Assembly: GCA_016906335.1 (NCBI GenBank)
Contig: JADEYG010000001.1
Location: 124,001-188,000, forward strand
Length of the DNA stretch: 64,000 nucleotides
Reading direction: 5' to 3'
DNA from: Novakomyces olei
Lineage: Eukaryota
The notes under the pieces are model-generated. The model made no database searches and was not told the origin of the DNA. It saw nothing but the letters and a program-made list of their open reading frames with translations. How positions within the stretch are numbered: the first letter of the stretch is position 1; each line of letters begins with the position of its first letter. The position numbers and the translations under genes were made by a program. Positions 3,969 to 32,852 of this stretch are shown here, one piece after another.

Positions 3969-4934
<966 letters not shown>

Positions 4935-7325: not shown

Positions 7326-7345
7326 CAGTGAAACTGAGTAAGGTC

Positions 7346-7378
<33 letters not shown>

Positions 7379-11166: not shown

Positions 11167-12187
11167 TACCCCACAATTTGCCTGACTTGTATATGAGACC
11201 AGCGGCCAATAATAATTAAGAGTCTGATAAGACTGATAATACTATACGATGTAGTATGATAAACGACGAAAATCAAAAGTGAATATGCCCGGCTTGGCCG
11301 CCCGATGATGCGGATAGTCAAAAGGTTGGGCGGCTGCTATTTTATGTGCTCAGCCAGGATTTGATAATTTCTCTTCATGTAAGCCTGCTGTGCCCTTATG
11401 GGCATATTAAATCTTGCTTCAAGAGAAAATTTATGAGTTGCGAATTGTACTGAGCCAAATTGCGCCATAGTCTTCACATAGCCAAAAAGCAAGCATTAAT
11501 CACGTAATTTAAGAATTGAAAGCTGAAGTAGATACTACTGCTACATGAATAGTCTGGGTAATGCTCCAATTGGCAAAGCTAAGCGATATGGTCATTTGGC
11601 TAACGCAAGGCTTTCCCTAACCGCGTATTAAGCTGTGGGCTGTTAGATCTACAGTACTACATATAGCGTATACGGTATTGTAGTAAACAAGGCACACTGA
11701 AAATAGAAACAACTTCAGATTGAATCAATCGTACTACGTTGTGTTTCATTCTATTATCTAGCATATTGAGTAGGCCTTGAAGTTTGGCTATCTGCAAAGC
11801 AAACCAAGTACTCGGCCGTCCACTTTAAAGCTAGTAGATCAATCTTGAATATACTTGATACTAATTAGCGTAATTCGTCTAGGAGCAATAGTAAAACAAG
11901 TCTGGGTAAAACTTAAAAAAAAAAACAAAAACAAAAATTGCGAAAAAGGCAATGAAACTTTCAGAACTGTAAAGGAAAGACATGAAAATAGGAGTAACAC
12001 TTCCTTAAATCTTGTACTTTCAATCTTGTGCTCGAAATTGCCCGTTACAAGGTCGAGACATCTAGTACAGACTGCTGCCTTCGTCCCGTGTTACAAGGAC
12101 GATTGGATTAATAATGTAAAACGTTGAATGGTGCTTTATGCATTACTGTATGCTAAACTACGCTCGCACGTCTAATAATACAGTATT

Positions 12188-13855
12188 CTATTCGTTCTTG
12201 AAATGAGGCGCACCGAGGGGCTCGTAATTTCTGTAAAACGACAAATCAGGCGGTGATTGCCTTTCATGGAGTGTTTGCAAATCCAAATATTCCGGTCCCA
12301 ATTGCTTTAGTGACGTCACACCGAGAAGTTTCATAGTTGTCACCATTTCCGCGGCAATCATCTGATTAAGTTTGCGAACACCTTCTTCACCATAGCAAGC
12401 ATTAGCAAAAAGATAAGGTCGGCCTAGTCCGACTCCTCTAGCTCCTAGACACAGTGCCTTTACAACATCAGAGCCTCTTCGTACGCCTCCATCGACATAA
12501 ACTTCTATCTTTTTATCAAGCCCTCGCTTTCGTAGCTCTGGCATAGCCTCGGCCAGAACCTCAATAGGCGCCCTTGCAAAATCAAGCTGTCTACCTCCAT
12601 GATTGGATAAAACAACAGCCTTAACTCCACGCTCAGCAGCTTCAACCACATCCTCTGCACACTGGATACCCTTCAGAACGACAGGTTTCCCATTGGATAC
12701 TTTTTCATACTCTTCCCATTTGTCCCAAGTAACAATGTGCTCTACGCTGTACTGCACTGCTTTTGCTAATTCCTTGGTTGACTGGCTCTTTTGCATGGAC
12801 AGGGCTCGTAATTTTAAATCCTTCTCCCGACGCCCAAAAGCAGACGTGTCTACAGTAACAAAAATAGCTTTAATAGTGGGCTCAGCAATAGCCGCCTTTA
12901 TACGTTTGATAGTCTCTGTCCGATCGTTTTCCACGTACAATTGGAACCACTGTGTTTGACCGGGGACCTGGCCCGCGATATCTTCCATGGGGAAAGACGC
13001 AAAATTAGATATCATTTGTACCACACCTTCTGCCCCACAGCCACGGGCAATTGACAGCTCACCGTCAGGGTTTCCCAGACGAGCCTGAGCAGCGGCGGAA
13101 CAGTAGAAAGGTACTTTAGTCGCAGTCCCCATAAAAGTGGTAGCAAGATCAACGGGCCCGGAAACGTCTCGCATAGCCCGCGGTTTGAAAAAAATACGGG
13201 AGTAAGCGTCATGATTTTCGCGTAAAGTGACTTCGTCATCAGCACCACTGGAATAGTAGCACCAAGCATTTGCCGGTAGAATCTTCCTGGCAACGTATTC
13301 GAAATCGTTGATATTCATAATCTGAGAGATATCCGGCATATTGTCCAAATAATCCAGTCTTTGCTGTTCTGCTTCATCGTCAATGTTCGCCGCAGTAACG
13401 TCGGGAGCCGGTTCCATTTTCCCGGCTAAAGGACCCAAGTGCTGATCGGGGGAAAGGTACTTGTCCACAAAGCTAGGAGCATGGTACTTATTGAAAATGG
13501 TGGACGCATTTTTTCCAGCGTACTGCAGGATTATATCGGCACCGCCGGGATGTTTAGGAAGGAACTTTGTCAAATCATACACCTCGTCATTCACAACAAC
13601 CCATACTCCTGCTTTCAGGCTGTTGTGGCTCTCCACATCGGCTACAGCTACTCCGGGCTTCTCCGACGATGCAAAGGCAATTGAGGATCCATAGTAAGCA
13701 GCAACCGCACTGGCAGTGGCAAAAGTGCCTAGTGCTATCGCTACGCGACGCGTAGACGTACGCGTAGACGCATACGCGTAACTGGCACGGGTCGCGTAAG
13801 CGCGGCGGCTAGACAGCCGGTAGAAGGACCGGCCAATCGAGAGCCTGGGCGGCAT
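12188..13855 (-). CDS. CYB2: Flavocytochrome b2-like L-2-hydroxyacid dehydrogenase (mitochondrial presequence, cytochrome b5 domain, FMN domain)
   Basis: HPGG heme motif, YYSSGADDE, SNHGGRQLD, DGGVRRGSD. The Arg/Ser-rich N-terminus starts at ATG 13855. Confidence 0.85.
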   Translation of the reverse strand: MPPRLSIGRSFYRLSSRRAYATRASYAYASTRTSTRRVAIALGTFATASAVAAYYGSSIAFASSEKPGVAVADVESHNSLKAGVWVVVNDEVYDLTKFLPKHPGGADIILQYAGKNASTIFNKYHAPSFVDKYLSPDQHLGPLAGKMEPAPDVTAANIDDEAEQQRLDYLDNMPDISQIMNINDFEYVARKILPANAWCYYSSGADDEVTLRENHDAYSRIFFKPRAMRDVSGPVDLATTFMGTATKVPFYCSAAAQARLGNPDGELSIARGCGAEGVVQMISNFASFPMEDIAGQVPGQTQWFQLYVENDRTETIKRIKAAIAEPTIKAIFVTVDTSAFGRREKDLKLRALSMQKSQSTKELAKAVQYSVEHIVTWDKWEEYEKVSNGKPVVLKGIQCAEDVVEAAERGVKAVVLSNHGGRQLDFARAPIEVLAEAMPELRKRGLDKKIEVYVDGGVRRGSDVVKALCLGARGVGLGRPYLFANACYGEEGVRKLNQMIAAEMVTTMKLLGVTSLKQLGPEYLDLQTLHERQSPPDLSFYRNYEPLGAPHFKNE

Positions 13856-14366
13856 TTGCTTCGTCAAGTTGCGTGGGGTGGTTTTAGCTATTACCATGTT
13901 AATTTTATTGCTTAAATCGTAATCGTCGGCAAAGATATTGGGTACAGGATGTTCAAGTAATAATCTCTCGGCAATCGGCAATCGGCAATCGTGCTAGCGT
14001 TAAGTCTATGTGGTAAGTATTGATTGATTTTTCAATTCGAGTTTATATGACAAAGTCGCAAGCTCTGCTTTTGCTGTCAATTGCTCTATAGCAGTTAATG
14101 AAGTTGGGATTTTCATAGTATTCAGAGGGCGGGAAAAGGACTAAACACCGCTTATCGTAATGCTTCCCGATCGCTAATTATACTAAAACTCTGTTATGAT
14201 TGGGCGATCTTCGAGTTGCCGAATTTAAAATAACATTATCACTAGTACCTATATTAATATTAATATTATTTATATTTATTTATTTATATCAATTTGTATT
14301 TTTATCGAAATGCAGACGCCCTTTTAAACATATTCACATACTACGCATCCACACACTGGCGCCTCT

Positions 14367-16508
14367 TTATTGTTGACTAGTAGCTTCCATAACTAGCTCC
14401 CCTCCATCAATCGACTCCAGCAATATGGGCCCCATGAAAGCGTAGGGCCAGCCGCCCGACAATTGTAGCCATATAGATTGAACGCTTATGGAGCGGGCTG
14501 AGGTATCACCCGTAGCAAATTTGACAGAAGCCTGTAGATTCGGAAGAGAAATAAATGACGGGTACCCGTCTCCAGGCTGAGGTCGAAAATCAGTTGCCTC
14601 TCCGCCTTCATCGTCCTCTTCCTCTTCATCCCCGAAATTGGGCGTGTCCACCATCTCTGCTTGTCCCAAGATCTTCTCATTAACCTCGCCCAGATAAGAT
14701 GCCTTGTAGAGATCGTGCATTATGTTCAGCGCTACAAGCCACTGTCTAGCCGCCTTCCATTCAGGGCCCCATGATGAAATTAATTGATGTACTAAATTAT
14801 AGTAATGTGAGGCCTTGTGCAATATCTCTTGATCAGAGTAATCCTTGTCCTGCGCATACTGGAGCCATAAAAGAGTATTCGCTGCAATCAACACGGAGGC
14901 CCCCACCCATACAGACTGCAATGACGAAGAGGGCATAAAAGAGGAGGCAGACGAAGAAGAGGGAATAATCTCGATCAAGCTCGAAAGCATTTCCCCAATT
15001 TTCAAGGCGCTTTTAACGCACGCAGATATTAAGGATTCTTCTCGGTGTAAATAAGACCAACCAGCAGCGTCCACAAGATCAACGAGCTTGGTGTAAGCTG
15101 TTAAATGAGGAAGATAGCATTGATGAGCGACACATGAAGCACTTTGCAACAAGAAATGCATTGCCACGAATGATCTTTGCTGTGAAAGAACACATTGTTT
15201 CTCGTAATTTTCCAGGTTCCATCCAATGCTTGTGGGCAAAGAATTTATCCAGGCCTGTAAGCCTTGGCTCTGCCGGTAAAATCCACTTCGTGGATCAGTG
15301 GGAACGTACCAGTCCAACCGCCGACGCGAATAAACAGTGAAATCCGCCATTTCGCTCCACAAGCAAACTGCTTTTATTAGATATGGTGTGAGACCAAGAT
15401 CAGAAGGCCGCTGCTGTGCTGCCAGATCATCTAACACGACACCCCTTGTCTCTTCTTGATAGGCTAAAGCAGCATCGGTGCCAGGCACGGCTATCGAAAC
15501 GGTATCTAGACTTATGGTACGGTGCTTTGCCAGTAAGTAGGCCAAAGCACGATCAAAGAGAAGGCATGCCCAAAACGTACGCCGCCGGACTTCTTGGTCT
15601 TTAAGGCTATGCTTTTGATGGAACTCCTTATTCAATCTCATTATTTCTGCCATACGAATTGCTGTTCCTGCGAAAAGATAGTGCCTTGATCCCGAGTTAT
15701 TGAGCAACTCGGCCATAGCGACAATGAGATTGGCTTGAATGTGGGTGACTTTGATGTTAGACTTGTTTTGTGATTTTTGATAAAGGCAAACGAAAACACA
15801 TGAAGCGGAAGGGCCTTGCAGATGAGTGGTAAAAGCAAACAAATAAATTTAAAAATTAATAATAAATTAAAAATAATATAAAATAAAAACAAAAACAAAA
15901 CTAAAATGAAAATCCGTCTCATACCACTAGGCTCATCAGATTTGTCTTTGACGAGCGACCTTGCCCTGACCAAGAACCGGCGGGAAACTTGACGGCCCAA
16001 AGCAAGCCCGAAATGCTTCTCTGCGTCTCGTGATCCGAGGTAACGTCCGCACAAGGCGACAACAGCAGACGAAAGAAGTAAGCTTTGTGTACATTTCCAC
16101 TCAAAGTCCGGTCGGTAGTCAAACGAGGCAAAGTCGCAGGAAAAATGGTGGTCGAAAAACAAGTCGAGGCACACGCGCAGGCCGTGTTGGCTTAGAGCGT
16201 ATCTTGCTGGAGCCGAAGTCATCGCGCGTTCAGTAGGCTGAGCCAGCTCGTTACCGTCGCTGAGGCTAGAAGCCCCCACCGTCTCTGGGCAAGAGTCACT
16301 CGCTGAATCTATAGCGAGCCAAGTACACGGTATATCTTTGGCCGCACAGTGCCTGCATCGAGGCCGTGTGCCATCGCACTTTGTCTTGCGGCGCCGACTA
16401 TTCACGAGGCAGGTCAGGCCCAAGATCTTTGCTGTGGAATAGGGATTGTATGGCTTACCAGTTGTTGCACGCTAGCGGAGTCCGAACAAAGCTTCGCTTC
16501 ATAATCAT
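14367..16508 (-). CDS. Zn2Cys6 transcription factor with fungal TF domain; introns 16398-16458 and about 15749-15924
   Basis: Spliced CNNCRRRKTKCDGTRPRCRHCAAKDIPC; EVRRRTFWACLLFDR. Confidence 0.9.
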
Positions 16509-17590
16509 CGCGGCGGAGTCAGCGATACGATTTTCAGTGGCGTTTTAACTGCCAGTCGAGCGCAGACTACTGCAAATTGTCCGCATTGCCTTTAGAAAAT
16601 AGTGGCAGAGTCTAATGCCCGCTCAATAGCTCACTTTGCCGCAGACGAGGCCCACGCGTAAGGAGAGTATAGCCCGTCCACGATACATGCAGCCCCGTGT
16701 TTTGTAATTAAGACGTGTTTTTTATATGCTTGTGGAGTGTGTATATGTGTATATGTGTATATGCGTGCAACATGAATTTAATACTATTCAGCGCGTCCAT
16801 AGAATATTATGGGTTTTTAGTGTTAATGGATTTGACTAAGAATGGAGGGCGTTTAATATATATACATGTGGTGTAACACGCTTCTTGTTTCTAAAAAGAT
16901 ATATTAAAGATTAGTTCTACCAGTATTTTTAACAGTTAGTGTTAGGAAAAGATAAACTAACCCTAACCCTGACTGATTCTGGCTTACTGCTGCTATGAGT
17001 AGCCCGACTCTAGAATTTTTATTTATACTATATTGATTTATACTATTCTTTATCTATTGTCGAAACATTTAATTTTAAAGATAGCCTTATTGCTCTTTCG
17101 AAATTACGCTATTCGGGTGTATATTCAAATGCGTAAAAGGTAACCCGCAAGCTAATTACTCGAGATATAGAACATTTTGATAAATATCTTCGCTTTGCGT
17201 TTACAAGTAATGCTCGAGCGCCCTCATAAACTAATCAATGCAATTAGCCCACAGCTTTTTTACTCACCGCACATATCCACTTTGCACACAAAACGAAGAC
17301 ATAAAGGGCCATAACGGATTGAAGGGCAGCGGACAAGCCGACCAATAAAAGAAGGTAAGGCGAATATAACGGGAGTAAAACAACATCAAAGTAGAACAGG
17401 AAAACCAAGAAATGTTACATACCTTCCACGATAAAGTATAGCGCACCTATTCGCGGATTGAAGTCCGATATCTTTGTGTGGGATAATTTCGGAACTTACA
17501 AATTCCGTGGGTGTTGAGATAAGGATACAGGCCAAAGTGTATAAAAACGCGCGTGTCCATGACTCGTCAGGCGCACTTAAGATCGTGAAG

Positions 17591-19539
17591 ATGTCTGACT
17601 TGAAGGAGAAATATGATGTTGAAGTCGTAAACGCACCAAAGACCGGTGAGGTCGTTGAGGTTGATCGAGCCTATGACCGCCAGGCGGACGATGAAGTTCG
17701 AAAGTTTCTGCTTGAAAATGATGAAGCAGTTACTATCACCGATGATGAGAGTCGACGAATCTTGCGCAAAATTGACTGGGGGATAATGGTACATCTTTGT
17801 GCACATGTTCATTTATACTATTTTTGTTTTCTCAGTTTAAATCTTCGTATCATTGATTTGATAGACTTTAAATCAGATATTTTTGTCATCCTCTGGCTCG
17901 CTTTTGCTAACTACAACATAGCCTCTAAGCTTAGCGTGCTACACCCTACAATACTTGGACAAAACTCTTATCAATTACAGCCAGTAAGATTTTTTAAAAG
18001 GCAATTACTAAACGAGCCAAAGCGTCATGGGACTGTTGAAGGATACCGGTATCAGTGCTGATCAGGTACGCATTGCTTGCCCCCTATTTTGTTTTATTTA
18101 TGTTTACTGCTATATGCTACTTTATTGGACTTTGCTAATCCTTTTTTCCAGTTTTCGTACATGGCAATGGTGTTCTATGTCTCCTACCTGTTTAGCGAAT
18201 CCTTTTCGGCAACTCTGCTCTCCCGGTTTCCAGCTGCCAGGTACCTTTCTATCAATGTAACACTGTGGGGAGCAGTTATCACTGGCATGTCCGGAATTTC
18301 TAACTTTGCGCAACTGACAGCTCTGAGGGTAATTGGATTTGGAATATGCACAGGCTTTTTCTTATTAATAATAGGTTCTTCTTGGTATATTCGAAAGTGC
18401 AGTAGCCCCAAGTTTGATTCTCATCAGCTCAATGTTTTATTTGCGAAGCGAGCAGCCGTTCAGGTAAAGGAAAAATTAAACTGGTTGCGTATGCTTACAG
18501 CGCCACAGGATCGGGATTTGGTATACTGGCACCGGATGGGGGGTCATAATAGGATCTCTGCTAAGTTTTGCCTTTCAGCATGTTCACTCTGAGCAGTTCA
18601 AATCATGGCAAATTCTTTTCCTTGTTGTTGGTCTGGTCACGGTCGTTGTGGGAATCATCTCAGCGTTCCTTTTGCCCAACAATCCAATGACTGCTCGATT
18701 TTTGACAAAGTCTGAACGATTATATGCCGTGTTGAGGGTGGAGAGCAACAAAACGGGCATAGAAAACCGATCTTTCAAGTTGTATCAAGCCAAAGAAGCC
18801 CTATTGGACTTTCGAATCTGGATACTTCTCATTATCATTTCTGCATCAAGTGTCTCGAACGGTGCAATCTCCACTTATTCTTCCACGATAATAAAAAATA
18901 TAGGATTTACATCAAAGCAGTCGGCGTTGCTTTCAATTCCTTCTGGAGTGATTTCAATCATTTCGACTCTCACCGTCACTTATTTGGCCACTAGAGGCGT
19001 ACAGATCACATATTGTGCAATCTTGTGCATTGTACCAGGAATCATTGGAGGATGCTTGCTGAGTTTTGTTGGAGAAAGTCACCATGGTCCTCTGCTGGCA
19101 GGAAATTATTTAATTCAACCCGTTGGTTCTGCGTTGCCTTTGTATTATTCTTTTGCGTCGATAAATACTAGTGGGCATACTAAAAAAGTGGTCGTTAACG
19201 CACTGGTTTTGGTTGCCTTTTGGTAAGCTCTTTCGCTCATTTTCTCGCGATTATACTTTGTTTTATTGCTTTATTATTATTTTCTGGCTTGTACTAATTG
19301 AAAGTGTCGGCAATATTATTGGCCCTCTTACGTTCACTGGAGCAACGGCTCCACAATTTTTGCCAGCTAAAATCGCGGTTGTCATTACACTTTGTGTCTC
19401 GTGCTTATTGCTTCTTTCATTGAAGGGAATGTATATGTATGAGAATAGGCGCCGAGACCGACTGCAGCAGGTCGTCGTACCAGAAAGCTGGCTCGATATT
19501 ACGGACAAGGAGAATAATGCGTTCAGGTACGGATATTAG
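17591..19539 (+). CDS. MFS allantoate/ureidosuccinate permease family (Dal5-like), multi-exon
   Basis: RRILRKIDW, QYLDKTLINY, LPNNPMTARFLT, NKTGIEN, NTSGHTKK, GNIIGP, DITDKENNAFRY. Confidence 0.88.
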
Positions 19540-20070
19540 AGAGGCAAGGGAGAATGTTGGATAGTTTTTTATTTTAACTGTGCGGGAGTTACTTGACAAT
19601 ACTTTATTTAATTGCTTTTTACACAAGAGCCCATGATTCAGTATTTTTCTAGGATTCGGTATTTTCTAGCCATTGGCTCCTAAATAGATTCCAATTTAAA
19701 GGCCGCATGATACATGATGAAGGGTAGTATGTTTGCTGGAAGAACAGATCGTATTATTAGACTTCCATCTGTCTCTATCCCGTCGCAAATAGCTCGGGCG
19801 CGGAGACTATAATGTCGCAATAAATCGCGAAAACCCACGGGAGATAAGGCGATAAGAAGGATTAAAAACGAAACCCAATGATAAATACAAAACAAGCCAA
19901 TCGGTATATATGTTTTTTATTACAACTTAACGAGACAACAAGTAACCTGACTACAACGGAAATTACAAGTTCCGTTTTGCGCAGTGCTTCTCCGCGTATC
20001 GCCACGAGCCGTAAACTCTTCCAACCTGTCCCTCCATCAAAGAGCAATAGAAACCCGGAATAATCATACA

Positions 20071-21893
20071 ATGACTGTACAAGTTGGCATTGAGCAGCAT
20101 GAGTTTATGCGGTTCGCTTCGCGGCGCTCTACCGTGCACTCGCTGGGAGGTATGGTCTCTTCGACACAGCCTTTGGCATCGGAAGCTGGCTACAGGATCC
20201 TTGAGAAAGGAGGAAATGCTGCTGATGCAGCAATAGCGGTAGCAGCTGGCCTTAATGTAACTGAGCCGGGCTCTACAGGAATTGGCGGTGACATGTTTTG
20301 CCTTTTTTACGACGCTTCTAGCCAAAAGGTGAGAGGCCTGAACGGCTCCGGCCGATCGCCAGCTGCCTTGTCGCTCGAGCGCGTTCGCCAAATGGGGATT
20401 ACGGGTGATCATATTCCGAGCACAAATATCAATGCCGCTACTGTGCCTGGAGCGGCTGCCGGCTGGGTGGACACTTTTGAGACCTTTGGCTCTGGCAAAG
20501 TCACAATGCAAGATATACTGGCGCCTGCTATTTCGCTAGCAGAGGATGGGTTCCCCGTCAGCCGAATTTCAGCCCACTCATGGCGTGGGGCAGAAAAGCT
20601 GCTAAAGACCGCTAGCCCGAACGGGAATGAAATGTTGCGAAAGAGTAAAGCGCCGAAAGAAGGGGAAATCATGCGGAACCCGACATTGGCACAGACCTTT
20701 AGGTCTGTTGCAGCCCACGGAAAAAGTGGGTTCTACACGGGTCGCATTGCCCAGGCTATTGTTGATCTAGTGCAATCAAAGGGCGGGTTAATGACACTTG
20801 AAGATTTAAAGGAGCATACATCCACTATAATCGAGCCGATTAGTGCCAAATTCTGGGGTAAAGATGTGTGGGAGTGCCCACCCAACGGGCAAGGTCTGGT
20901 GGCCCTGATCGCACTACAGCTGGTACAGGCCTTGAAGACACGTGAAGAAATGTACAAATTGCAACATAACTCTACCGCCTACCTGCACCTTCTTATCGAG
21001 TGCCTGCGTATTGCCTTTGCCGATGGGAATGAGCATATTGCTGACCCCAATTTTGTTCGCGTCTTGCATGACAGTTTGCTGCACGAAGTATATACAGAGG
21101 AACGTGCAAAATTGTTTAGCGAAAAGCAGCATAATCCTAATATTACATTTGGCTCCCCTCATAACTCGAGTGACACTGTTTACTTCTCCGTCACTGATAA
21201 AGAGGGCAATGCCTGCTCTTTTATTATTTCAAATTATGAAGGTTTCGGAACGGGAGCAATTCCCAAGGCCTGTGGGTTCACTCTGCAAAATCGAGGCAGC
21301 AATTTTGTTCTTACCGAATCCCACGCAAACTGCATTGCGCCTAGAAAACGACCGTACCATACAATAATCCCAGCATTAGTAACGGAAAACGGTGAGTTGT
21401 GGGCTACTTATGGTGTAATGGGAGGCTTTATGCAGCCTCAGGGTCATGTTCAAGTTTTGCTTAATATGTTGGTTTTTGGAATGGATCCACAGGAAGCTTT
21501 AGACGCTCCTAGATTTTGTATAAACTCAGCTTCGGACTCCAATTCCGTCGTTTTCTTGGAAGAAGGTGTCGATGATAACGTCGTTAAGGGCTTGCAAGCA
21601 CTTGGTCATGAGGTCGAACTGCTTAAAGGTTTCAGCCGTGCACGGTTTGGCAGAGGCCAAATTATCAGAAGTCGGTACGATGAGGATGGTAACCGGATTT
21701 TTTCCGGTGGTAGTGATATGCGTGGAGATGGTGAGAGAACAGCAATAAAAATAAATCTATTTGTTGGCTTGTCTTAAATTTTGATTCTGCTTTCTTTTAT
21801 TTCATTTTGTATGTTTTAGTTCTTTAGGATTTACTTTCAATTGAATGTGCTCGAAACTAACTTTTAGGCGCGGCTATCCCGGTCAGTAAATAA
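20071..21893 (+). CDS. Cytosolic gamma-glutamyltranspeptidase-like Ntn amidohydrolase (YwrD/HpxW/LmbA type); terminal intron 21731-21867
   Basis: GGNAADAAIA, GIGGDMF, SDTVYF (autoprocessing Thr), KRPYHTIIP, GVMGGFMQPQGH. No signal peptide or TM anchor. Spliced end reads DGAAIPVSK*. Confidence 0.9.
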
Positions 21894-22039
21894 ATCGTCT
21901 GTTGGACATTTCGAACCAAATTTTTTAAATTTTTAAATAATTATTCACAGTTTACGAGCATTGAGGATATAAATATAACTGTGACTAGAGATATAAACAA
22001 ATAAAAAGTCCTTAATTATGAATTATCGCTGTTTTTACA

Positions 22040-24380
22040 TTAATGCATCCGCAGTGGATCAGACTGAAACCCGAATAAAACCTCAATCGGCACATCGTAA
22101 AGCCCCGGGTGTAAATCTGGCTGAGAATTCACTATTTCGTCTGCCATAGTCGACGTCCTTGCCGGCGAGGTTACAATAGGTCTGTCAAACAGCTGAAGCA
22201 GTGTATCAAAATCATTAAAATTGTTTAGAGGCATGGATGAATCAAAATCATCAAATTCAAAATCCATCAATGACGCAAGATCTCTTGCCGGAACAGGCAC
22301 ATTTTCACGGTGCGCAAGCTCCTCGTGTATCGCTGTTGGCGGTGATGCAATAGGGTCACGGGTCAGGCAGACATTTAGTTTTTCCATCAAAGAGTTTATG
22401 ACTCCATAGGCCTTTCTGGCCACTGGATTAGTGGGGCAATTTTGTTCAATGACGTAAAGGCAAAGCAGCAGGGCCGAGTGCATGTCCGAATGCCCTTTTA
22501 ATTGCGACGCCAGTCTTACAATAATAGTGGCGGCCGAATAAACTGCGTAAGAAACCAGATACGGGGCGTCACTCGCCTTGTATATATTGCAATAAGTCTG
22601 TGTAAGCTGTACAACACCAAAAGCGCTACGAGCACAATAATGCAGGTTTTCTGCTGCTTCGTCTTCGCTCCGTTTCAAATGGCCTCCCTCCAGGAAAGGC
22701 CTGTGCGTCAAAATAACAATAATATAATATAAAAAATGCATTGAGAAAATATTGCGGCTTGGGACTTGATGGCTGTTTGCTGGGGACCGGGATATTTTTA
22801 GCCATTCCGGCAACGCGTTGGTCCAATTATTTAACAAATCGACGATTCCCTGCTGTGCAGTTCTGGCCGCCTTAAACGGCCTAGTGTACAGTTGACTGAT
22901 GATAGACTCCATAATCACACCGAGTTCGCACAGGCAGGTAAAAGCCGATAGCGAATAATGATGAGCAAAGTAGCCTTCCAGAGGCGTTTCCACCAAATCA
23001 TACTCCTCCGACCAATCGAGAAATTCTGGTTTCGTAGACGTGTCCTTTACGAAAATACTTACAGCCCGCCCTTGGTAGAATGAATGGACTTTATCCAAAA
23101 CTGAGATTGTTAGTTGATCATATACACATGGGAAAGCGTACCATAAGCACCCCAAAAGACTCGGTTACGAATTTCTCGACCTTGAATCATGGCCACAGTG
23201 GCATCTTCCGGCAAGGGAATATTAATATGCAAACCCAAATCAACAATCATTCGAAACGCCTTGAATTAGAATTGAGCAATAATTTACGTACTATTCCGCT
23301 GTAAATCCACCCCGTGCTTTGCTTTCCAATCGCAAAAAGCCTGCTAGATAGTAAAAGCAAAGCTTGTATCGTAGTAATTCGTGAACTAATTTTCCGTTGT
23401 TAGCCAGCTCATCTAATTAGTCTCTTTCAATTTACCACTGAAGCTCTTCCACCAAAAGAACTTTGACCCTTTCTAAAAAAACCATTCCGCTTGTAGATGG
23501 GTCGGATGGATTTCCTCTTATTCGAAGATCGCTCGAGAATTTGGCAGCACCGAAATAAATGGCGTTCAAGAGGAGCTTGGAAAAATAAGGACCGCCACAA
23601 GCCATATCTCGCATAAACGCTGGGCGATAAGTTAGTACATACATGTGATGCTGCCGATTCCAATGGGACTCAAGCAGTTGCATGCCAACAAAAGGATCGA
23701 CACCATCGAAATCAAGTTGGCCTGTCTCGAAATGTTTTGATTCCAATGCTCCTAAATTGTTTAAAACCAGACACATTCAAACAAAACAAAAGGGGAAAAT
23801 AAAAAAAAATAAAAAGAAAGAAAGAAGTTGTTCACTTACTTTGCTCCTTAGCCTCCTGTTCTAATAGCCGTTTAGCGGAAGAACTAGGAATAGAAGCTGA
23901 GCTTTCAGTGTATGGCTCCTTTCCATCAGAGCCATAAGCAGGAAAAAAAGAGCTTGTGGGTCCGTGATAAGTTTCATTCCCTAGCACTGCGCCCTTGTAA
24001 GATAGTCCTACAATTTCTGGGTCAGGTGCTGGCGAATTTAGGTGTGTAGTAGCAGAGCTCTGGTTGGACTCGCGCAGTTTGCTAATTTCGTCCTGTAATT
24101 TGAGGACATCGGCCCTCGATACGCTATAAAATTTAGAAAAAAAGCACACAAAGAGATGCCGCCAGATTTGCCTGGGCGGATTGACCTACCGTAGTCTCTT
24201 TTTGTGAGGGTGGTAACTGCACTCACGATTGTGTACTGTACAATGTGTGCAGCGCGGCACTTCATTATCGCATTTTAACTATAGATTTCAGTAATAAACT
24301 CACAATGAAACAATGCGTACTTTACGCTGCCGGCAAAAGTCACATGCCGACTTTACGCGAGCTTTTCGTTCCCTCGCCAT
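22040..24380 (-). CDS. Zn2Cys6 transcription factor, NirA/Nit-4-like family, multi-exon
   Basis: Spliced SACDFCRQRKLKCDNEVPRCTHCTVHNRECSY; HWNRQHH..TYRPAFMRDMACGGPYFSKLLLNAIY; IVILTHRPF. Confidence 0.88.
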
Positions 24381-24690
24381 GGCATTGCAAGCTACGGCGC
24401 TCTGAAGAGTCTACAGTGTGCCTAATGTACTGTATTTATTATTCGCTTATCGAGGCCATACAATAATACTAAAATATTATTTGACACTTGTATGGCGAGG
24501 TGGGTGGGGGTCATTGATCGGCAAAGGCTGTAGAGCAATTTTTACTTGGAATACTGAATCTACAAGTCAGAAAAGGTACGGGCGGCATTTAACGCAAAAT
24601 ATACTTAACGAAAGTTGCATTAATGCAAGTTGTGGCTGGTCTTTGAAAAATTCGTATCCCTTTTCCAATTTGCTCTCATTAAGAGCGACA

Positions 24691-25674
24691 CTATGAAGGA
24701 GGTCGAGCCTCAGTCTGTTTTGTAATTAGCGAATAATGTTCAATGTGCCGGTGGTTGGCAAAATTGAATGAAAGCTGCTTCCCAATCTGTGCCTCGCCGA
24801 GATCAATAGAAGCAGAAATAATAGCATCGCCAGTGCCCGTCTCTTCGGCTATTATATGGCCTTGCGGGCTGACTATACACGAGCCCCCAATCAATTCGTA
24901 TTTCCCGTCATCGACACCAGCTCTCGCTGCCGATACGGACCACGTAGAGTTTGCGTAAGAATTTGCCTGCATGCAGAGTCTGTGCTGGAAGTATACCTCA
25001 TCGATACACTCCTGTTTTGTTTTCCGCTTGGGATCTTGGCCCCACGCATAAGGCGTATACGCCGTAGTATTAAACCCGCACAATACGAGCTCGACTCCCT
25101 GGAGACCGAGGACGCGCCAGCTCTCAGGCCAGCGACGGTCGTTGCAAATAATCATTCCCATGATGGCGTTAATGGACGATTTCGGGTTGAAGGCTTTGAA
25201 CCCGAGATCTCCAATTTTAAAGTACCGCTTTTCAAGATGCTCATTGCCATCGGGATAGTTTGCGGGCTCAACCGTGCCGGGCACATGGATTTTTCGGTAC
25301 TTTGCAATTGCATTCCCGTGCTTATCTACATACACCATCGAATTGAAGTATTCACCATTGTCCGTTTTTTCGGCATAGCCGATGCAAACGTCGATGGCAA
25401 GTTTTCTCGCGTGGTCGAAAAAGGCTTTGACGTTTTTGCTCGAGGTTATTTCCCCACTTTCAAACCAATCATCAAGCTCTGAGCTGTTCAACAGATACCT
25501 GGGGAAAAAGGTGGTGAAAGCTAGTTCGGGAAAGACAACAAGGTCTACACCTTTTGCTTTAGCAATATCAAGCAGGCTGATAAGGCGCTGTATTACATCT
25601 CCACGTGGCGTCGACCTGTTTATTGCTCCAACCTGAGCTGCCGCTACCGTGACTACTCTTTTACTATTTGTCAT
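24691..25674 (-). CDS. Nitrilase-superfamily N-carbamoyl-amino acid amidohydrolase (D-carbamoylase-like)
   Basis: Glu-Lys-Cys triad in VFPELAFTTFFPR, KYRKIHVPG and GMIICNDRRWPE. EHLEKRYF is typical of the DCase branch. Intronless. Confidence 0.9.
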   Translation of the reverse strand: MTNSKRVVTVAAAQVGAINRSTPRGDVIQRLISLLDIAKAKGVDLVVFPELAFTTFFPRYLLNSSELDDWFESGEITSSKNVKAFFDHARKLAIDVCIGYAEKTDNGEYFNSMVYVDKHGNAIAKYRKIHVPGTVEPANYPDGNEHLEKRYFKIGDLGFKAFNPKSSINAIMGMIICNDRRWPESWRVLGLQGVELVLCGFNTTAYTPYAWGQDPKRKTKQECIDEVYFQHRLCMQANSYANSTWSVSAARAGVDDGKYELIGGSCIVSPQGHIIAEETGTGDAIISASIDLGEAQIGKQLSFNFANHRHIEHYSLITKQTEARPPS

Positions 25675-26474
25675 TTCCGCAGTGTCCAGACCTATCCGTC
25701 TCTCGTGACATTTAATTGCGCAACATTATAAACTATAAATCGCTCGTACTAGATTTGGATGACATGTTGCTCGCAAGACTTTCCCTCCTTCAACTGTTAT
25801 CTCGAGTGGGGGACGCTGACAAACTTCGTGTATCTTGGTCACGTGACCTTGATAAGCGATTATTCCTGTGAAATTCTATTGTTCCCAAATTAGCCATAGC
25901 TACGGAATATTCAAGTATCAAGTAATAATTGCCGGCGGCTAACGCCCGCTAATAATATCTGTGAAATAGTGTCGTTGTTATTCTATACACCAACCGTAGT
26001 AAATGCTGTGACCGCTGTGAGCAGTGAAATGCACCGAATCCACCCGCGCATACACATAAATTGGACAAGAAAAGCAGGATATTTGAATAGTAAATTGTTG
26101 AAAAATGGAGCGGTTCATGCATTAGGTCCACGTTAACCTAATTCCCAAAAGCAGGCGATTTGGCCACTAGAACAGTTTGCGGAAAGATAAGCCGATCGAT
26201 GTGGGGGCCACAGCTTGATAACAAGTAATGCTGCAAAAAATCACACGAATCCATTAGTAAAATACGAAATAGTATGTGTGGGTTGGCGAATACAAATGGT
26301 ATCCAAAAATACGAGATAACAAGGGAAGTGGGGGCCAAACACGTCAATCTCAAATTTGACAGAAGTTTAAATAGAGACGATCGTCAAACAATCGACATTG
26401 ACTTTGGCTCTCAGAGTACTATTGTTCAAAAAAATTTGTCTTCAAAGCATCAAATAAAGAACAACACAACCAAG

Positions 26475-28173
26475 ATGTCGATCAACCTAGAGAAAGCTCC
26501 CGATAAATTGGAGGTTTCTGAGAGCCTTAATGGTCTCTCTGAAGAATTCACAAAGGCAGAGGAAAGGCGAATGCTTTTTAAGCTTGATATTACCATTCTT
26601 CCCATGCTGGCAATCCTATATTTTTGCAGGTACGTTGTTGCTAGTTGTTACTTTTTCTGTGGTCTTTTCGTTCACAATTCGAGGCTTTGACTGGATTTTG
26701 TTGCATTTTTCTCACACATCATTTAGCAACGTTGATAAATCAAACTTGAGCAATGCAAAGACCTCGGACCAGTTTAATGACGACATCGGATTCCATGGTC
26801 GCATGTACAATGACATGCTTTCTTACACTAATATTCCTTACATTGTATTTGGACCTTTGATGGGTGCCGTCTCAAAGCGGTACGGAGCGAGTATAGTTTT
26901 ACCAATTTGCATGTTTGTTTTTGGTGCTATGGGAGCCTTGTCTGCTGCTTGCAATAATTATGGTGGACTGCTAGTCGTTCGATTGATTTTATCGGCTGTC
27001 GAGTCCGGTCTCTTTGCCAGTGTCGCGCTTTACCTTAGTCAGTTTTATCGACGTTTGGAATTGGGTGGACGCCTCAGTATCTTTTATGGTGCTTCGCAAT
27101 TTGCTGTGGCGTTTATTGGTCTTATTGCTTACGCTACACTTCGTATTGATGGAACAATTGCCGGATGGCGTATTATGTTTATCATTGAAGGCCTCGTCAC
27201 AGTAGTGGGAGCTATAATGGCGTTTTTCATTCTCCCCAAGTCTCCCGCCAATGCATGGATGCTCACTCCTAAGGAAAGAATGTTTGCTGTGCAACGTATT
27301 GAGGCTGATTCCTCGATATCTTTGAAGGGAGACTTTAACTACATTGTGACCTTGAAGAAGATATTCAAACGCCCTGTGTTTTATTATTGGCTCGTTTCGT
27401 ATACCTTGCTTGGTATGTTTGACTTTTTATTTTAAAATACATGTATTCGCAAATACTAATTAATGCCAGGCATTCCTCTGTTTTCAACGTCGCTGTGGTT
27501 TCCTCAGATTGTTCAGTCTCTCGGTTTCGATACTGTCAAGGTAAGATCATTGCAGTGACATATTTTGTTTTTGATCTTCACATTTTCTTTGTGTATTCGA
27601 ATCTAACATTTGGCATAGACAAATTTGTACACCGTCGCACCAAGCTTGGTGGCCGCCGTTTATCTTGTCGCAGTATGCTATTTGTCAGACTACCTCAAGA
27701 ATAGGTGCAGCATGATTACATTTACGATTTCTCTCTGCATTATCGGATACATTATCCTGGCCGCAATCGACCCGCTCAAACATTTTGGAGTTTCATATTT
27801 TGCAATGTTCCTCATGTCCTGCGGATTTCATGCACCTAGTCCTATTTTTGTTGCCTGGTTCAGCAATAATACGCCAGATGAAAATGAGCGCGCTCTCATG
27901 ACTCCAATTCTCGTATCGCTTTGCAATGCTATGACTTTTGTAGCGTCAAATATCTTTTTCCCTTCTCAGGCTCCTCACTACTACACTGCACTTTACATTA
28001 ATATTGCTGCTGGTGCTCTTAGTCTTATTACCGCTCTGATGATCGAGGCATATATGATACGTCAGAACCGCAAGCTGGACTCACAGCAGGGACAAAAAAT
28101 ACGATCTCAAGATGTTGCGACCCGCGATTTGAAGTTAGGATACAAGGATCCTAAATTTCGATATGTATACTAG
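26475..28173 (+). CDS. MFS anion:cation symporter (Tna1/Dal5 family), multi-exon
   Basis: EERRMLFKLD, DKSNLSNAKT, YLSQFYRRLELGGRLSIFY, GWRIMFIIEG, DPKFRYVY. Confidence 0.88.
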
Positions 28174-28388
28174 CTCGTTGCTCTTTGACATGGATTTGAG
28201 CAGGATGAGCAGGATGAGCAGGCTGGTTATATAGATTTGTTGCCTGATAATTTTGAATATTACCATATCATACTGGTAATTCGAAATGGATATGAATGTT
28301 TTGTAATCTGCATATGATAGTCATTAGTATCCACGCCATTCTTTTACCAACTGTGCGACTTGTGAATACAAAAATAATATGGATAAAT

Positions 28389-28561
28389 ATGGGCAAAAAG
28401 TCTCAAAGCTGCATCGTCGGTGGTGGACCTGGTGGACTTGCTCAGCAATTGCAGCCTCGCAAATATTATATGTGTAAGTAACAGTAGAAGCGCTAAAAGG
28501 TTCGCTCAGCCAAGTTCGTGCTGGTATTAGCTTGTTTCCTAATGGCTGGGAGTATCTGTAG
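28389..28561 (+). pseudogene. Remnant N-terminus of an FAD-dependent monooxygenase (salicylate-hydroxylase/HpxO-like group)
   Basis: Reads MGKKSQSCIVGGGPGGLA, then a frameshift near 28443, then AIAASQILYV*VTVEALKGSLSQVRAGISLFPNGWEYL*. It has GxGxxG plus a degenerate GAGI-x-L-x-PNG motif. Confidence 0.7.
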
Positions 28562-30198
28562 ATTTTTCTTCGAGTTATAATATTCAATTCAGTGGTAAAC
28601 GTGACGAAAGTTGAAGTAAAAGCTCAAAAAAGCTCAATCGGAAAAGTCCGCAATAAATTATTATTTTTGTCGGTTTTGGAGCCATGTTACTTCGTTAGGA
28701 ATTGGTCAAAGTAATACATAAGATAAAATGGATATGCAAAATCAATATTCGAGAACTTCAGGAGAATTATTTGACAGCACGTGATTTGCGCCCAACGAAA
28801 ATTGGCCTGTGACACGAAGAACAGAAACAATTGGGTGTATAATTAATAATAAGGTAAAAGGGCGATATATTTTATTACTAAAAAATATCTCTAATAGGTA
28901 TATCTCCTATCTCAAAGTAATGTTCCGTCTTGGAATCATTTTCATATTGTGACGGGCCCTTTGATAGCGCAAATCTGATTGTTACAATGTTGTACCTAAA
29001 TTTATTCGTTTTGCAATACTGATAAATATCTTGCCGTCGTTATCGCGTGCTCGACCATTAGACATTTTTTGCATTAGTAATTATCCTGAAACTTAACGCG
29101 TAATAACTTGAAATTTAATTTAGCGTGACAATATTTGTGGGTTTGCTCAAGATAACTGACATAACACCCTGTCAAAAATAATAAGTACATGCCGAAATCG
29201 GGCTTTGTCAGATGCTGCACCTTGAATGGCATTTGTCTTAGAACATATGCCGCACACTGCCGTGAATTGTCCCGGCGTCGTCAATATTGATTGCTGAGCT
29301 AGCATTACCATTTATTCAAGTCCATGGAGCTCTAGGTGTGAGATACTATGAAAGTGGGATAAGGTATCAGAGTGCTCAACGCATTTAATACGTAGTCTTA
29401 CTCGGCGTTGTGTGCTATCGCAGCAGTTTCCATAAAACATAGCATAAAACAAGAGACATTTAAACGACCACTTTGTACACGAAAGCACTCTCATCGATAA
29501 AAATGAACATGAAAACCTATCTGGGATCAGGTCGATCCCGGGGGCATAGTACAGTACTGTGCCCATAGTGCAATTGGCCATTACGCAAACGTTGGCCGCT
29601 TCACGTTTTTCAAAAGAACTCATACGTCTCGCCAGCGTCCAAATTATATACTAGCCCACGGAACCAGATTGATTAATCCCACGTATCTACTCATACTATA
29701 ATATGCAGTTCAAGTTATAGGAGTCCATACGTAACGATGATGGCTACTCGGCGGAAGCGGGCAATAAAAAAAGTCAAATTACGTAGAATTGCCGCGGCTA
29801 TTATGTTAATCATTCTAGCGCATGTTATCTTGCAAGCCACAGGACAGTAAGGCTCGTTTTAAATTGCGCGAGTCACCTATGAATGACTAAATATCGCGTG
29901 CTTCGATTACTATATCGGGATAAGACAGTATAGGTATAGTACAATTATTATATGATATAGTACGCTAGTCAGTATGTCGCCGCTTACAAACCCCCACAAT
30001 AGACAAGTTTTGGCATTCAATTGTATAAGTAGCGGGTCAGAGCCGGTTTTTAAAACATCAACCCTGTCGCTGTAACGCAAGGCCTCTTTGCAATTTCAGC
30101 TTTGCAAAGCAAGGCTGCCACTGTAGATTGCTTGGACTGAATAAGCACAGAGGACACGAACGGAAACAAAAATAGCCATTGGGACAGTTTAAAGCAAG

Positions 30199-31848
30199 AT
30201 GGGAATCACAGAGTATTTTTATGGCAGAGCAGCGAGTCCGGACAAGCATTCGGATGATGAGAAAAATGAAAATTTTATCGAAAACACGGGTCATCCTGTA
30301 GCGGTTCATCATGTTGGTCATAATTTCGATAATAGCGAGATTGCAAAGTATTGGATGGATATATATGAAGAGGCAAAATACGAGTCGCGTCATCAAATTG
30401 ACCCGAAGTTTGCTTGGGAGCCAGTGGAGGAAAAACGACTCGTCCGTAAGACTGATTGGTACGTAACTTTCTGGGCCTTTATTATGTTTGTTGGTCTCAA
30501 TATCGATCGATACAACATGGCAAATGCTACGGCCGGCACAATTTTGGAGGATTTGAATTTAACAACAAACGATTACAATCTGGGAAACACGATAAATTTT
30601 GTTTGCTTTTTAGCGGCAGAGCTCCCGTCCCAGTTAATTTCAAAATGGGTTGGACCCGATCGCTGGATCCCAATTCAACTTACACTATGGAGCGTTGTAT
30701 CGATTAGTCAGTGCCGAATGACATCACGTAGCGGATTTCTTGCCACTAGAGCTTTGATCGGTGCACTTGAAGGCGGATTCATCCCGGATGTCTCCCTGTG
30801 GATGTCTTATTTTTACAAAAACAACGAGCTGTCTGTCCGTTTTGCTTGGTTTTATATCGCAAATCCTTTTACCCAGGCCGTGACGGGCCTTTTGTCTGCG
30901 GCAATTTTCACGCTGCACGATGCGAGGGGTATGAGAGGATGGCAATGGATTTTCCTTATTGAAGGATTGATCACGCTTATCATTGGCCTTTGCTCCTTCT
31001 TTAAGATGCCGGCCTCCGTAGTTCAAACTCGAACGTGGTTCCGACGCAGTGGATGGTACACCGACCGGGAGGAGAAAATAATGGTGAACCGTGTCATCCG
31101 CGATGATCCAAGCAAAGGCGAACTGAACAACCGTCAGCCAATCAATCTGCAGATGCTGTGGAAATCGCTCATAGATTATGACCTGTGGCCGTTATACGTA
31201 TCCCGATTGTTCCTTGATATTGTGGCACAACCATTGACCAGATACGCGTCTATTATTCTGAGAAGTCAGCATTTTTCAACCGCTATAAACAATTTGCTGC
31301 AGGTGCCTTACGCCGCTTTTCAAATAATAACAATGGTATGCATGAGTCACGGAGCGCGCAGGTACAGACAGTTTGGTATTTTCCTTTCTGTCACGGCAAT
31401 CTGGTTATTGCCTTGTCTCGCTGCCATGCTCTGGTGGCCCGAGTACAGGCACAATGTATGGCCCAGCTATATTATTTTATTTTTCGCCCTGAGCTATCCG
31501 CCTTCTTGGCCCATCACGATCGCTTGGACGTCGGAGAACTCGAACAGTGTTCGCACCCGGTCAGTTTCTGCCGCTATTGTGAATATGTTTTCACAGAGCG
31601 CCAACATTATTGGAGCCAATTTGTTTAGACAGGACGATGCTCCGGCTTACAAGCGGGGTTTAAGGCAAGATTTTGCTATTTGCATCGCGGCTATTGTTTG
31701 TGTATACCTCACCAGATACTACTACATGGTCAAAAACAAGATCCGTGAACGCAAGTGGGCCGCAATGAGCCCAGAGCAGCAAATGGACTATATCAAAAAC
31801 ACGCCCGAGCAGGGAAACAAGCGCCTTGATTTCAGGTTCGCTTACTGA
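30199..31848 (+). CDS. MFS ACS transporter, Soa1(YIL166C)/AstA-like sulfonate/sulfur-anion permease
   Basis: KYESRHQIDPKFAW..EEKRLVRKTD, ELPSQLISK..GPDRWIP, RDDPSKGELNNRQ, NKRLDFRFAY. Confidence 0.8.
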   Translation: MGITEYFYGRAASPDKHSDDEKNENFIENTGHPVAVHHVGHNFDNSEIAKYWMDIYEEAKYESRHQIDPKFAWEPVEEKRLVRKTDWYVTFWAFIMFVGLNIDRYNMANATAGTILEDLNLTTNDYNLGNTINFVCFLAAELPSQLISKWVGPDRWIPIQLTLWSVVSISQCRMTSRSGFLATRALIGALEGGFIPDVSLWMSYFYKNNELSVRFAWFYIANPFTQAVTGLLSAAIFTLHDARGMRGWQWIFLIEGLITLIIGLCSFFKMPASVVQTRTWFRRSGWYTDREEKIMVNRVIRDDPSKGELNNRQPINLQMLWKSLIDYDLWPLYVSRLFLDIVAQPLTRYASIILRSQHFSTAINNLLQVPYAAFQIITMVCMSHGARRYRQFGIFLSVTAIWLLPCLAAMLWWPEYRHNVWPSYIILFFALSYPPSWPITIAWTSENSNSVRTRSVSAAIVNMFSQSANIIGANLFRQDDAPAYKRGLRQDFAICIAAIVCVYLTRYYYMVKNKIRERKWAAMSPEQQMDYIKNTPEQGNKRLDFRFAY

Positions 31849-32852
31849 AACCAATGCGAATCTGTCTTTACGTGTGTTTGACACTTTGCACTACGTCATT
31901 ATTGCTTTATCGTCTTTTTTGTCTACCATACATTTATCCATACATTTATCATTGAACATTTGACTATATATTCTTTTGCCTGTTATTAACCTGTTTAGCG
32001 TACACTCATACTTTACAATCTCTGGGGACATGAAAAGTGCAATTCTGCACGTTACTGGCAGCGAGCAGCATCGTTATATGCACTTTTCTGCATAGTTTTA
32101 TTTTATATTATTTATTTATTTACTTATCTGTTTATTTATTTATTTTTCCTAAAGATTTATTCGTATTTCTGATACCTGTTGAAATAGATTAGACATGAAT
32201 ATATATGTTATAGACCCAGCAAGATCTGTCGCTCAGGCACGCGTGCATTTAACAGGTGAATAAATTGGTCGGCTTTAGTAGGCTTTTAGGCGTAACCGCA
32301 ATCCATACCGCTATTGTTATTTCCTTCTGCAAGTAATCTTTGAGTCAATCATCGATTATAGCGTTTCGACATCTGTTGCAGTACGATTACTTGCAATTAC
32401 TTGCATACTCCGCCAACTAAATAGCCTAATACTCGAGTACCAAAGTACCCAAAAAAGCCTAAATGCCAACCAAATACACTGAACACCCACACCAAAAACC
32501 CTAAACACCCCAGCGATCCAACACCTAAACGCTCAACATCACGTAATCGTATATATTGCGTGACCATATATATATTGCCTAATCGTATATATTGCGTCAA
32601 AGTATAGGCGTAGTAGACATTGTATTTCCGAGCGCGCCGAAAGTCATAAATTAATAAACAAAGTATAAATTAATAATAATTGCCGTGACTAGTAGCCGTG
32701 ACGTCGTAGTCGGCGTGGTGGTGCAATTATTTATTATTGCCGTCCCCGAGTTAAGAGTAATCCGTGAACCGTAATCCGCAATCACACATTCAGTATACAA
32801 ATACCAGTGCCTACCGAGACCACAGAGCAGTGCCACAACTACCTGAATCCAT

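Follow-up and report, generated by a model that had tools for sequence, protein, structure and literature searches.

A Novakomyces olei locus with two predicted amidohydrolase genes as a candidate pair of juxtaposed scavenging modules

Results

Gene content of the locus

In a 64-kb stretch of Novakomyces olei DNA (the window; positions count from its first letter), six predicted intact genes lie side by side at 14367-28173 once introns are modelled. They encode a Zn2Cys6 transcription factor (TF1), a Dal5-type permease of the anion:cation symporter (ACS) family (MFS1), an Ntn hydrolase of the YwrD/2NLZ type (GGT-like), a second Zn2Cys6 factor (TF2), a carbon-nitrogen hydrolase resembling N-carbamoyl-D-amino-acid hydrolases (DCase-like) and a further permease labelled as ACS-family (MFS2). 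An initial annotation had read the six genes as a single catabolic cluster, with the carbamoylase supplying the substrate of the GGT-like amidase. In the following, side A denotes TF1, MFS1 and the GGT-like gene, and side B denotes TF2, the DCase-like gene and MFS2. Coordinates are given in Table 1.

The gene models were built from open reading frame (ORF) and Pfam scans with frame-by-frame inspection, exons being joined by coordinates; the models rest on canonical GT..AG introns, 39-137 nt long, and on the restored motifs of each family. Every frame is open after intron removal, which bears out the six intact genes of the initial annotation, along with their order, their orientation and the family labels, which match the Pfam and PDB assignments. 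The two divergent pairs are also as described, with spacers of 1082 bp between TF1 and MFS1 and 797 bp between the DCase-like gene and MFS2. In the hand model of TF1, the complete Zn2Cys6 motif CNNCRRRKTKCDGTRPRCRHC is restored across an intron, and in that of TF2, CDFCRQRKLKCDNEVPRCTHC is recovered along with the fungal_trans core (TIQALLLLS...AFRMIVDLGLH). The zinc clusters of both factors are complete only after intron removal, and therefore, the gene models are supported. The introns of the window are short, have GT..AG borders and carry CTAAC-like branch sites and, together with the presence of Zn2Cys6 factors, give the stretch a fungal character. One modelled intron of MFS1 (17984-18022; GTAAGA...AAG with a TACTAAA branch-like site) would be unusually short with only 39 nt; it is needed for the MFS1 frame and for the conserved VMGL motif.

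A palindrome shared by the MFS1 and GGT-like promoters

Inverted CGG triplets are the classic dimer site of Zn2Cys6 factors. An 18-bp palindrome of the form CGG-N12-CCG stands at matching distances before the start codons of MFS1 (CGGAACTTACAAATTCCG) and of the GGT-like gene (CGGAAATTACAAGTTCCG). The common pattern CGGAANTTACAANTTCCG (CGGAA-N-TTACAA-N-TTCCG), with 16 specified bases, has exactly two exact matches in the 64 kb and gave none in 100 shuffles. The likeness of the two promoters stops at the borders of the palindrome, and therefore, they do not represent a duplicated promoter. With up to three mismatches allowed, no copy was present in the TF2 promoter or in the spacer between the DCase-like gene and MFS2, and no significant motif was common to these promoters and those on the palindrome side. 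Hence, no regulatory element is shared across all six genes, the palindrome standing only before MFS1 and the GGT-like gene. The sole 12-mer common to promoters of sides A and B, ACAAGTAATGCT (17203 and 26221), was rejected as a link, since at least one such 12-mer appeared in 24% of 300 shuffles and the match is thus within chance.

The GATAAG hexamers upstream of the GGT-like gene lie exactly where the initial annotation had placed them, and the direct pair is a possible GATA-factor (nitrogen catabolite) site. The accompanying claim of GATAA-rich promoters did not hold: HGATAR motifs occur at 5.5-6.3 per kb in three of the promoters and at 3.2 per kb in that of TF2 (window average, 3.4), but the AT-rich, non-promoter spacer at 28174-30192 has 5.9 per kb. 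An enrichment of GATA sites in the promoters was therefore rejected.

Two further observations concern the same spacers. The element CGGATTGAAG occurs twice between TF1 and MFS1 (17315-17324 and 17454-17467) and may be a candidate site for a second factor; one copy, 23 bp before the main palindrome, forms a CGG-N8-CCG (CGGATTGAAGTCCG). A GATAAG-containing CGG-N9-CCG is found at 26180, in the spacer between the DCase-like gene and MFS2.

Table 1. Positions of genes and elements discussed in the text; entries L001 to L003 are numbered within their own loci, all others within the window
Feature	Position	Strand	Remarks
TF1, Zn2Cys6 factor	14367-15748, 15925-16397, 16459-16508	-	3 exons, 634 aa; Pfam Zn_clus and Fungal_trans
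CGGAACTTACAAATTCCG, CGG-N12-CCG palindrome	17490-17507	+	84 bp upstream of MFS1 ATG; candidate Zn2Cys6 dimer site
MFS1, Dal5-type ACS permease	17591-19539	+	7 exons, 505 aa; Pfam MFS_1
GATAAG hexamer pair, direct	19843 and 19851 (19843-19856)	+	220-228 bp upstream of GGT-like ATG
CGGAAATTACAAGTTCCG, second CGG-N12-CCG copy	19957-19974	+	97 bp upstream of GGT-like ATG
GGT-like Ntn hydrolase, YwrD/2NLZ type	20071-21730, 21868-21893	+	2 exons, 561 aa; Pfam G_glu_transpept, 1.1e-141
TF2, Zn2Cys6 factor	22040-24380	-	7 exons, 673 aa
DCase-like carbon-nitrogen hydrolase	24691-25677	-	single exon, 328 aa; Pfam CN_hydrolase, 3.2e-43
MFS2, labelled ACS-family permease	26475-26629, 26727-27412, 27470-27540, 27619-28173	+	4 exons, 488 aa; Pfam MFS_1
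Claimed FAD-monooxygenase remnant (rejected)	28296-28481	+	61-aa ORF carrying VGGGPGGL, a GxGxxG-like string
GFO/IDH/MocA oxidoreductase	1373-2617
ACS-family permease	5624-7117	-
Amino-acid permease	about 9063-10296	-
Flavocytochrome-b2-type FMN dehydrogenase	12188-13993	-
ACS-family permease	30193-31848	+
Zinc alcohol dehydrogenase	32847-33890
Open frame	34279-35856	-	525 aa; no Pfam match at E <= 0.001
L001, hydantoinase, DCase, racemase and Zn2Cys6 set	2558-9904
L002, same set	356-6730
L003, same set	4359-19683

The GGT-like protein belongs to a non-canonical group

The best solved relative of the GGT-like protein is 2NLZ, a "cephalosporin acylase" of Bacillus halodurans (1.6e-114, 387 bits), whereas 2I3O reaches 252 bits and the canonical GGTs reach 190-235 bits over the whole protein. 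Restricted to the small subunit, the comparison gives 144 bits for 2NLZ, 114 for 2I3O, 92 for HpxW (5HFT; identified as HpxW in excerpts of PMC12360370) and 42-59 for canonical GGTs. By these comparisons, the protein is placed in the non-canonical YwrD/HpxW/class-IV-acylase group; no grouping with the glutathione-type GGTs, which would have spoken against the initial annotation, was seen.

Closer inspection of the active site revealed that the nucleophile Thr369 aligns with T391 of the Escherichia coli GGT and GVMGG with GSPGG, so that the Gly-Gly oxyanion pair is kept; the threonine is present in all 26 fungal family members. The E. coli residues N411, Q430, D433, S462 and S463 are replaced by Y, R, N, H and T, respectively, and the gamma-glutamyl-binding residues are thus not kept (we take Asn411, Gln430 and Ser462/463, in this numbering, to have that role). 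None of the 26 fungal relatives has Asp at the position of D433; the residue is Asn in 17 of them and Gly in 9. According to excerpts of PMC8062742, Asp433 binds the gamma-glutamyl amino group and is Asn in the class IV cephalosporin acylases, and with the D433N exchange, transpeptidation is lost and glutaryl-7-ACA acylase activity is gained. Because of the Asn at this position and the effect of D433N, the GGT-like protein is predicted to act as an amidase on a substrate that lacks the alpha-amino group of gamma-glutamyl compounds, and not as a glutathione GGT. Its N terminus, MTVQVGIEQHEFMRFASRRSTVH, has no hydrophobic stretch by inspection, and neither a signal peptide nor an anchor was seen there.

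Homologues with 55-63% identity are found in chytrids, Glomeromycota, Basidiomycota, Taphrinomycotina and Pezizomycotina, and in the first three of these groups, the family occurs irrespective of the presence of a DCase. The nearest prokaryotic relatives, from Heimdallarchaeota, Thorarchaeota, Bathyarchaeia and Chloroflexota (L081-L091), have 53-56% identity and are nearly as close as the fungal orthologues of other phyla, which points to a gene that is old in eukaryotes or that was transferred between domains. Bacillus YwrD itself is without an assigned physiological role in the excerpts of PMC8062742; a resemblance to HpxW and a co-evolution with purine catabolism have been suggested by Danchin (PMC5270733, in excerpt). 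In the portions of the ggtA literature that were available, nothing on the GGT-like family was found.

The DCase-like protein and its fungal clade

Among solved structures, the DCase-like protein hits eleven N-carbamoyl-D-amino-acid hydrolase sequences with E values of 1e-67 to 2e-73 and about 47% identity, whereas all other CN-hydrolases score 1e-17 or worse. The motifs FPELA, KYRKIH, CNDRRW and HLEKRYF are in register with 8I99/6LEI, and the Glu-Lys-Cys triad is kept; these residues are invariant across 34 fungal sequences. At the reference Pro199 position, the protein has Thr. The reference triad is Cys172/Glu47/Lys127, with Asn173, Arg176 and His144 as ligand contacts (PMC11503299, in excerpt). 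Arg175 also counts among the substrate-contact residues. From its sequence, the protein is assigned to the N-carbamoyl-D-amino-acid hydrolase type, and decarbamoylase activity is predicted.

Homologues (45-57% identity) are patchier among fungi than those of the GGT-like protein. A FastTree phylogeny was calculated from a subset of 64 rows, with 39 of the 120 listed matches and 24 of 80 loci (see below), chosen to span the named taxa and context classes. The fungal DCases form one clade (SH-like support of 100) apart from the bacterial DCases, and the protein of the window lies within it on a branch of 0.68, compared to a median of 0.22. The long branch suggests a changed role.

Fungal loci with hydantoinase, DCase and racemase genes

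A metagenome scan with the 34-sequence DCase alignment gave 80 loci, of which 77 are bacterial and three (L001-L003) are fungal-like, with a GC content of 0.47-0.50, longer matches and a position inside the fungal clade of the tree. In all three, a dihydropyrimidinase/D-hydantoinase gene (2FTY, 349 bits; 1NFG, 319 bits) diverges from the DCase gene, and a homologue of hydantoin/allantoin racemases (3QVJ, 5LFD) and a Zn2Cys6 factor are also present. The three factors are mutually orthologous, but they match TF2 only within the 49-aa zinc cluster, are unrelated to it outside and, hence, are not its orthologues. L003 has an ACS MFS gene and a P450 gene in addition. Hydantoinase-like genes occur in 18 of the 77 bacterial loci, and racemase-like genes in 23. 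In the window, the hydantoinase and racemase proteins of L001-L003 found no tblastn match at E <= 1e-3.

Two fungal proteins from Friedmanniomyces and "Taxawa", P0136 (567 aa) and P0207 (538 aa), contain the Asp/Glu/hydantoin racemase domain PF01177 and the CN_hydrolase domain PF00795 in one chain. They may be either true fusions or merged models of neighbouring genes; racemase-DCase adjacency is indicated either way.

To judge from their gene content, L001-L003 look like a eukaryotic counterpart of the bacterial hyu clusters. No description of a fungal hydantoinase/carbamoylase/racemase cluster was found in the literature on racemase, carbamoylase and fungi or on DCase and Zn2Cys6, and none was evident from the titles and abstracts on hydantoinase, hydantoin racemase and fungi. 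The available part of PMC5169069 treats fungal Asp/Glu/hydantoin racemases as horizontal gene transfers, with no mention there of hydantoinase or carbamoyl, and dihydropyrimidinase is widespread in fungi (PMC9585004, in excerpt).

The two hydrolase genes are unlinked in the other genomes covered

The species comparison covered the best 120 matches of each search, GGT-like and DCase, and paralogues may exist outside these. Four species were common to both lists, and in every one, the two homologues lie on contigs of different length: Saitoella (635874 and 436079), Neolentinus (1528150 and 995929), Guyanagaster (2412579 and 1793957) and Coniferiporia (133980 and 263825). The relatives of MFS1 have almost no species in common with those of the two hydrolases; in Thozetella the genes are unlinked, and in Collybiopsis the match is weak.

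The same picture emerged from the gene neighbourhoods. When all proteins of the window were used as tblastn queries, no GGT homologue was found in the flanks of the three fungal or the 77 bacterial DCase loci. Conversely, a scan of prokaryote genomes with the 26-sequence GGT alignment gave 80 loci (43-56% identity), and beside none of these GGT-like genes was there a DCase-type gene or an ACS MFS gene; one locus has a distant CN-hydrolase with 26% identity. No neighbour recurred in more than 17 of the 80 loci. Because the genes are on separate contigs in 4/4 species and are not co-located in 80 plus 80 loci, they are unlinked in related genomes as far as these samples reach, an outcome that counts against the initial annotation by its own standard. 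A conserved co-location of GGT-like and DCase genes in other genomes was thus not observed, with the sample of fungal contexts being small.

Permeases, regulators and the surrounding stretch

MFS1 has 99 relatives at E <= 1e-10, the nearest with about 50% identity, and many of them are labelled allantoate or allantoin permease in their source records, as annotation only. With the MFS_1 match, this agrees with the label "Dal5-like" of the initial annotation. MFS2 is 24% identical to MFS1, and its exon 2 hits only generic MFS clusters in the ESM Atlas; its classification is at the level of the MFS. The two factors of the locus share only 46% identity over 35 aa and 22% over 107 aa.

The four ACS-family permeases within the 64 kb (MFS1, MFS2 and two outside the locus) have mutual identities of 22-26%. 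An amino-acid permease, an FMN dehydrogenase of the flavocytochrome b2 type, a zinc alcohol dehydrogenase and a GFO/IDH/MocA oxidoreductase were also noted, and by its predicted genes, the window is a permease-rich nutrient-assimilation stretch.

The FAD-monooxygenase remnant that had been claimed downstream of MFS2 was given up. The ORF and nine neighbouring plus-strand ORFs gave no FAD- or monooxygenase-family match in Pfam at E <= 1, and the only matches there were two unrelated ones below threshold in the overlapping ORF 28328-28477 (DUF4328, E of 0.013; Zn_ribbon_ZPR1, E of 0.059).

Discussion

In sum, we favour, with about even confidence, a reading of the locus as two juxtaposed and separately wired scavenging modules, each made up of a Zn2Cys6 activator, an ACS permease and a cytosolic amidohydrolase. 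It builds on the gene models, the families, the active sites, the cis-element and the absence of GGT-DCase linkage in the genomes covered, from which we infer the pairing of factors with sites, the direction of transport and the substrates.

Module A would comprise TF1, the Dal5-like MFS1 and the GGT-like hydrolase, tied together by the palindrome. In this module, MFS1 would import an anionic amide or ureido carboxylate, and the autoprocessed Thr-nucleophile hydrolase would cleave an amide without a free alpha-amino group, of the oxamate, glutaryl or acyl type and not glutathione, which would release ammonia or an amine. The two genes would be switched on together via the palindrome, most likely bound by a dimer of TF1, and may in addition be under nitrogen control by GATA factors. 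The hydrolase resembles YwrD/2NLZ in sequence, in its predicted intracellular location and in the Asn at the Asp433 position; unlike YwrD, the gene of the window is paired with a Dal5-like permease and with a dedicated promoter element. With HpxW of Klebsiella, it shares the non-canonical branch, QNRGxxF instead of NNQMDDF, the Thr nucleophile and the autoprocessing layout, but HpxW scores well below 2NLZ in the small subunit and has Ala at the D433 position, and the window has no hpx-like purine-catabolic neighbours. The combination of a Dal5-family permease, a Zn2Cys6 regulator and GATA sites follows the nitrogen-scavenging logic of the DAL cluster of Saccharomyces, in which Dal5 is the allantoate-ureidosuccinate permease; in contrast to the DAL cluster, the window contains no allantoinase, allantoicase, ureidoglycolate lyase or urea amidolyase.

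Module B would comprise the DCase-like hydrolase, MFS2 and, as candidate regulator, TF2. MFS2 would import pre-formed N-carbamoyl (ureido) acids, and the Cys-Glu-Lys hydrolase would remove their carbamoyl group, with an amino acid, CO2 and NH3 as products. By its gene content, the module appears to be related to the fungal hydantoinase/carbamoylase/racemase cluster, in reduced form. With L001-L003 it has in common the fungal DCase clade and an adjoining Zn2Cys6 factor (and with L003, a nearby ACS MFS gene), but the gene divergent from the DCase is a permease gene in the window and a hydantoinase gene in L001-L003, the racemase is missing and the transcription factor is not orthologous. Like the bacterial hyu clusters, the module has a DCase homologue with the triad and CNDRRW beside a transporter and a regulator. 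Unlike them, it is without hydantoinase and racemase, its transporter is a eukaryotic ACS-family MFS protein, its regulator is of the Zn2Cys6 type and its DCase belongs to a separate, fungal clade.

Several points weigh against the two-module reading. The co-regulation in module A rests on a single shared motif, and TF1 is taken to bind the palindrome only because its gene is adjacent. Since its family spans the fungal phyla, the GGT-like gene may serve a housekeeping function that has nothing to do with MFS1. The fungal DCase contexts number only three, all from one sub-clade of the tree, and the separate-contig result extends to the best 120 matches per search, so that paralogues are possible. 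Finally, the adjacency of the modules and the GATAAG-containing CGG-N9-CCG at 26180 may leave room for a functional link between them.

It is unlikely, in our view, that the six genes are simply unrelated neighbours, with a housekeeping GGT-like gene and neither module a functional unit. Such a juxtaposition would be in line with the wide distribution of the GGT-like family, with the lack of a conserved neighbour in its 80 prokaryotic loci and with the nature of the window: with four distantly related ACS permeases, an amino-acid permease and several oxidoreductases within 64 kb, adjacency of permease and enzyme genes is expected by chance. However, chance does not explain a palindrome of 16 specified bases at matching distances before MFS1 and the GGT-like gene. 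Furthermore, fungal catabolic mini-clusters are usually laid out as divergent pairs of factor and permease and of enzyme and permease genes, and the DCase is clustered with partners in all three fungal loci and, less regularly, in the bacterial ones.

It is also imaginable that module B serves the full hydantoin or dihydropyrimidine route, with the hydantoinase and racemase genes having moved elsewhere in the genome, but we consider this quite unlikely. The active site of the DCase-like protein is unchanged, and the protein belongs to the fungal clade, where linkage to both of these genes was seen in the sampled members. However, no homologue of Amidohydro_1 or PF01177 lies within the 64 kb, TF2 is not an orthologue of the L001-L003 factor and the long branch of the DCase speaks for a changed role.

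The proposal of the initial annotation, a single catabolic cluster, fares worse and is, in our assessment, very unlikely. In this proposal, an imported ureido acid, such as oxalurate, is converted by the DCase to oxamate, which an HpxW-like hydrolase then cleaves to oxalate and NH3. The scheme is chemically attractive: two amidohydrolase genes lie 3 kb apart together with permeases and regulators, oxalurate is, by our own reasoning, isosteric with N-carbamoylglycine, and the GGT-like protein shares the small-subunit motifs QNRGxxF, HT..P and MGG..QPQ with HpxW, to which it is closer than to the canonical GGTs. The suggested ties of YwrD to HpxW and to purine catabolism (PMC5270733, in excerpt) would fit as well. 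However, the enzyme genes are unlinked in all four species and in both sets of 80 loci, the palindrome excludes the DCase side, the GGT-like protein is far closer to 2NLZ than to HpxW, with Asn against Ala at D433, and its family occurs in chytrids, Glomeromycota and Basidiomycota irrespective of the DCase. We also know of no fungal purine catabolism that passes through oxamate.

In a combined version, the YwrD/HpxW-type hydrolase would break down an imported amido- or ureido-carboxylate under a dedicated Zn2Cys6 factor via CGG-N12-CCG. Having come to lie beside a hydantoinase-free carbamoylase module in this lineage, it would act together with that module on an acyl-urea such as oxalurate, which would pass through oxamate and end as oxalate, CO2 and two NH3. 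We hold this long shot to be highly improbable; if true, the conversion of oxalurate via oxamate would add an as yet undescribed route in eukaryotes.

On present evidence, the locus falls short of a new pathway and is only moderately unusual: fungal mini-clusters of factor, permease and enzyme genes and hyu-type carbamoylase clusters are known kinds, of which it is a variant. The by-products of the analysis outrank the original claim. If module A is real, it would provide the first regulatory and transport context for YwrD-type GGT homologues, a family conserved from chytrids to mushrooms and 53-56% identical to proteins of Asgard archaea, Bathyarchaeia and Chloroflexota, and the palindrome, the adjoining factor and the Dal5-like permease make a search for the inducer of this candidate regulon of an orphan Ntn hydrolase feasible. 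Module B and L001-L003 indicate that fungi have hydantoinase/carbamoylase/racemase clusters of their own, and such hyu-like clusters bear on the turnover of D-amino acids and hydantoins and on biocatalysis.

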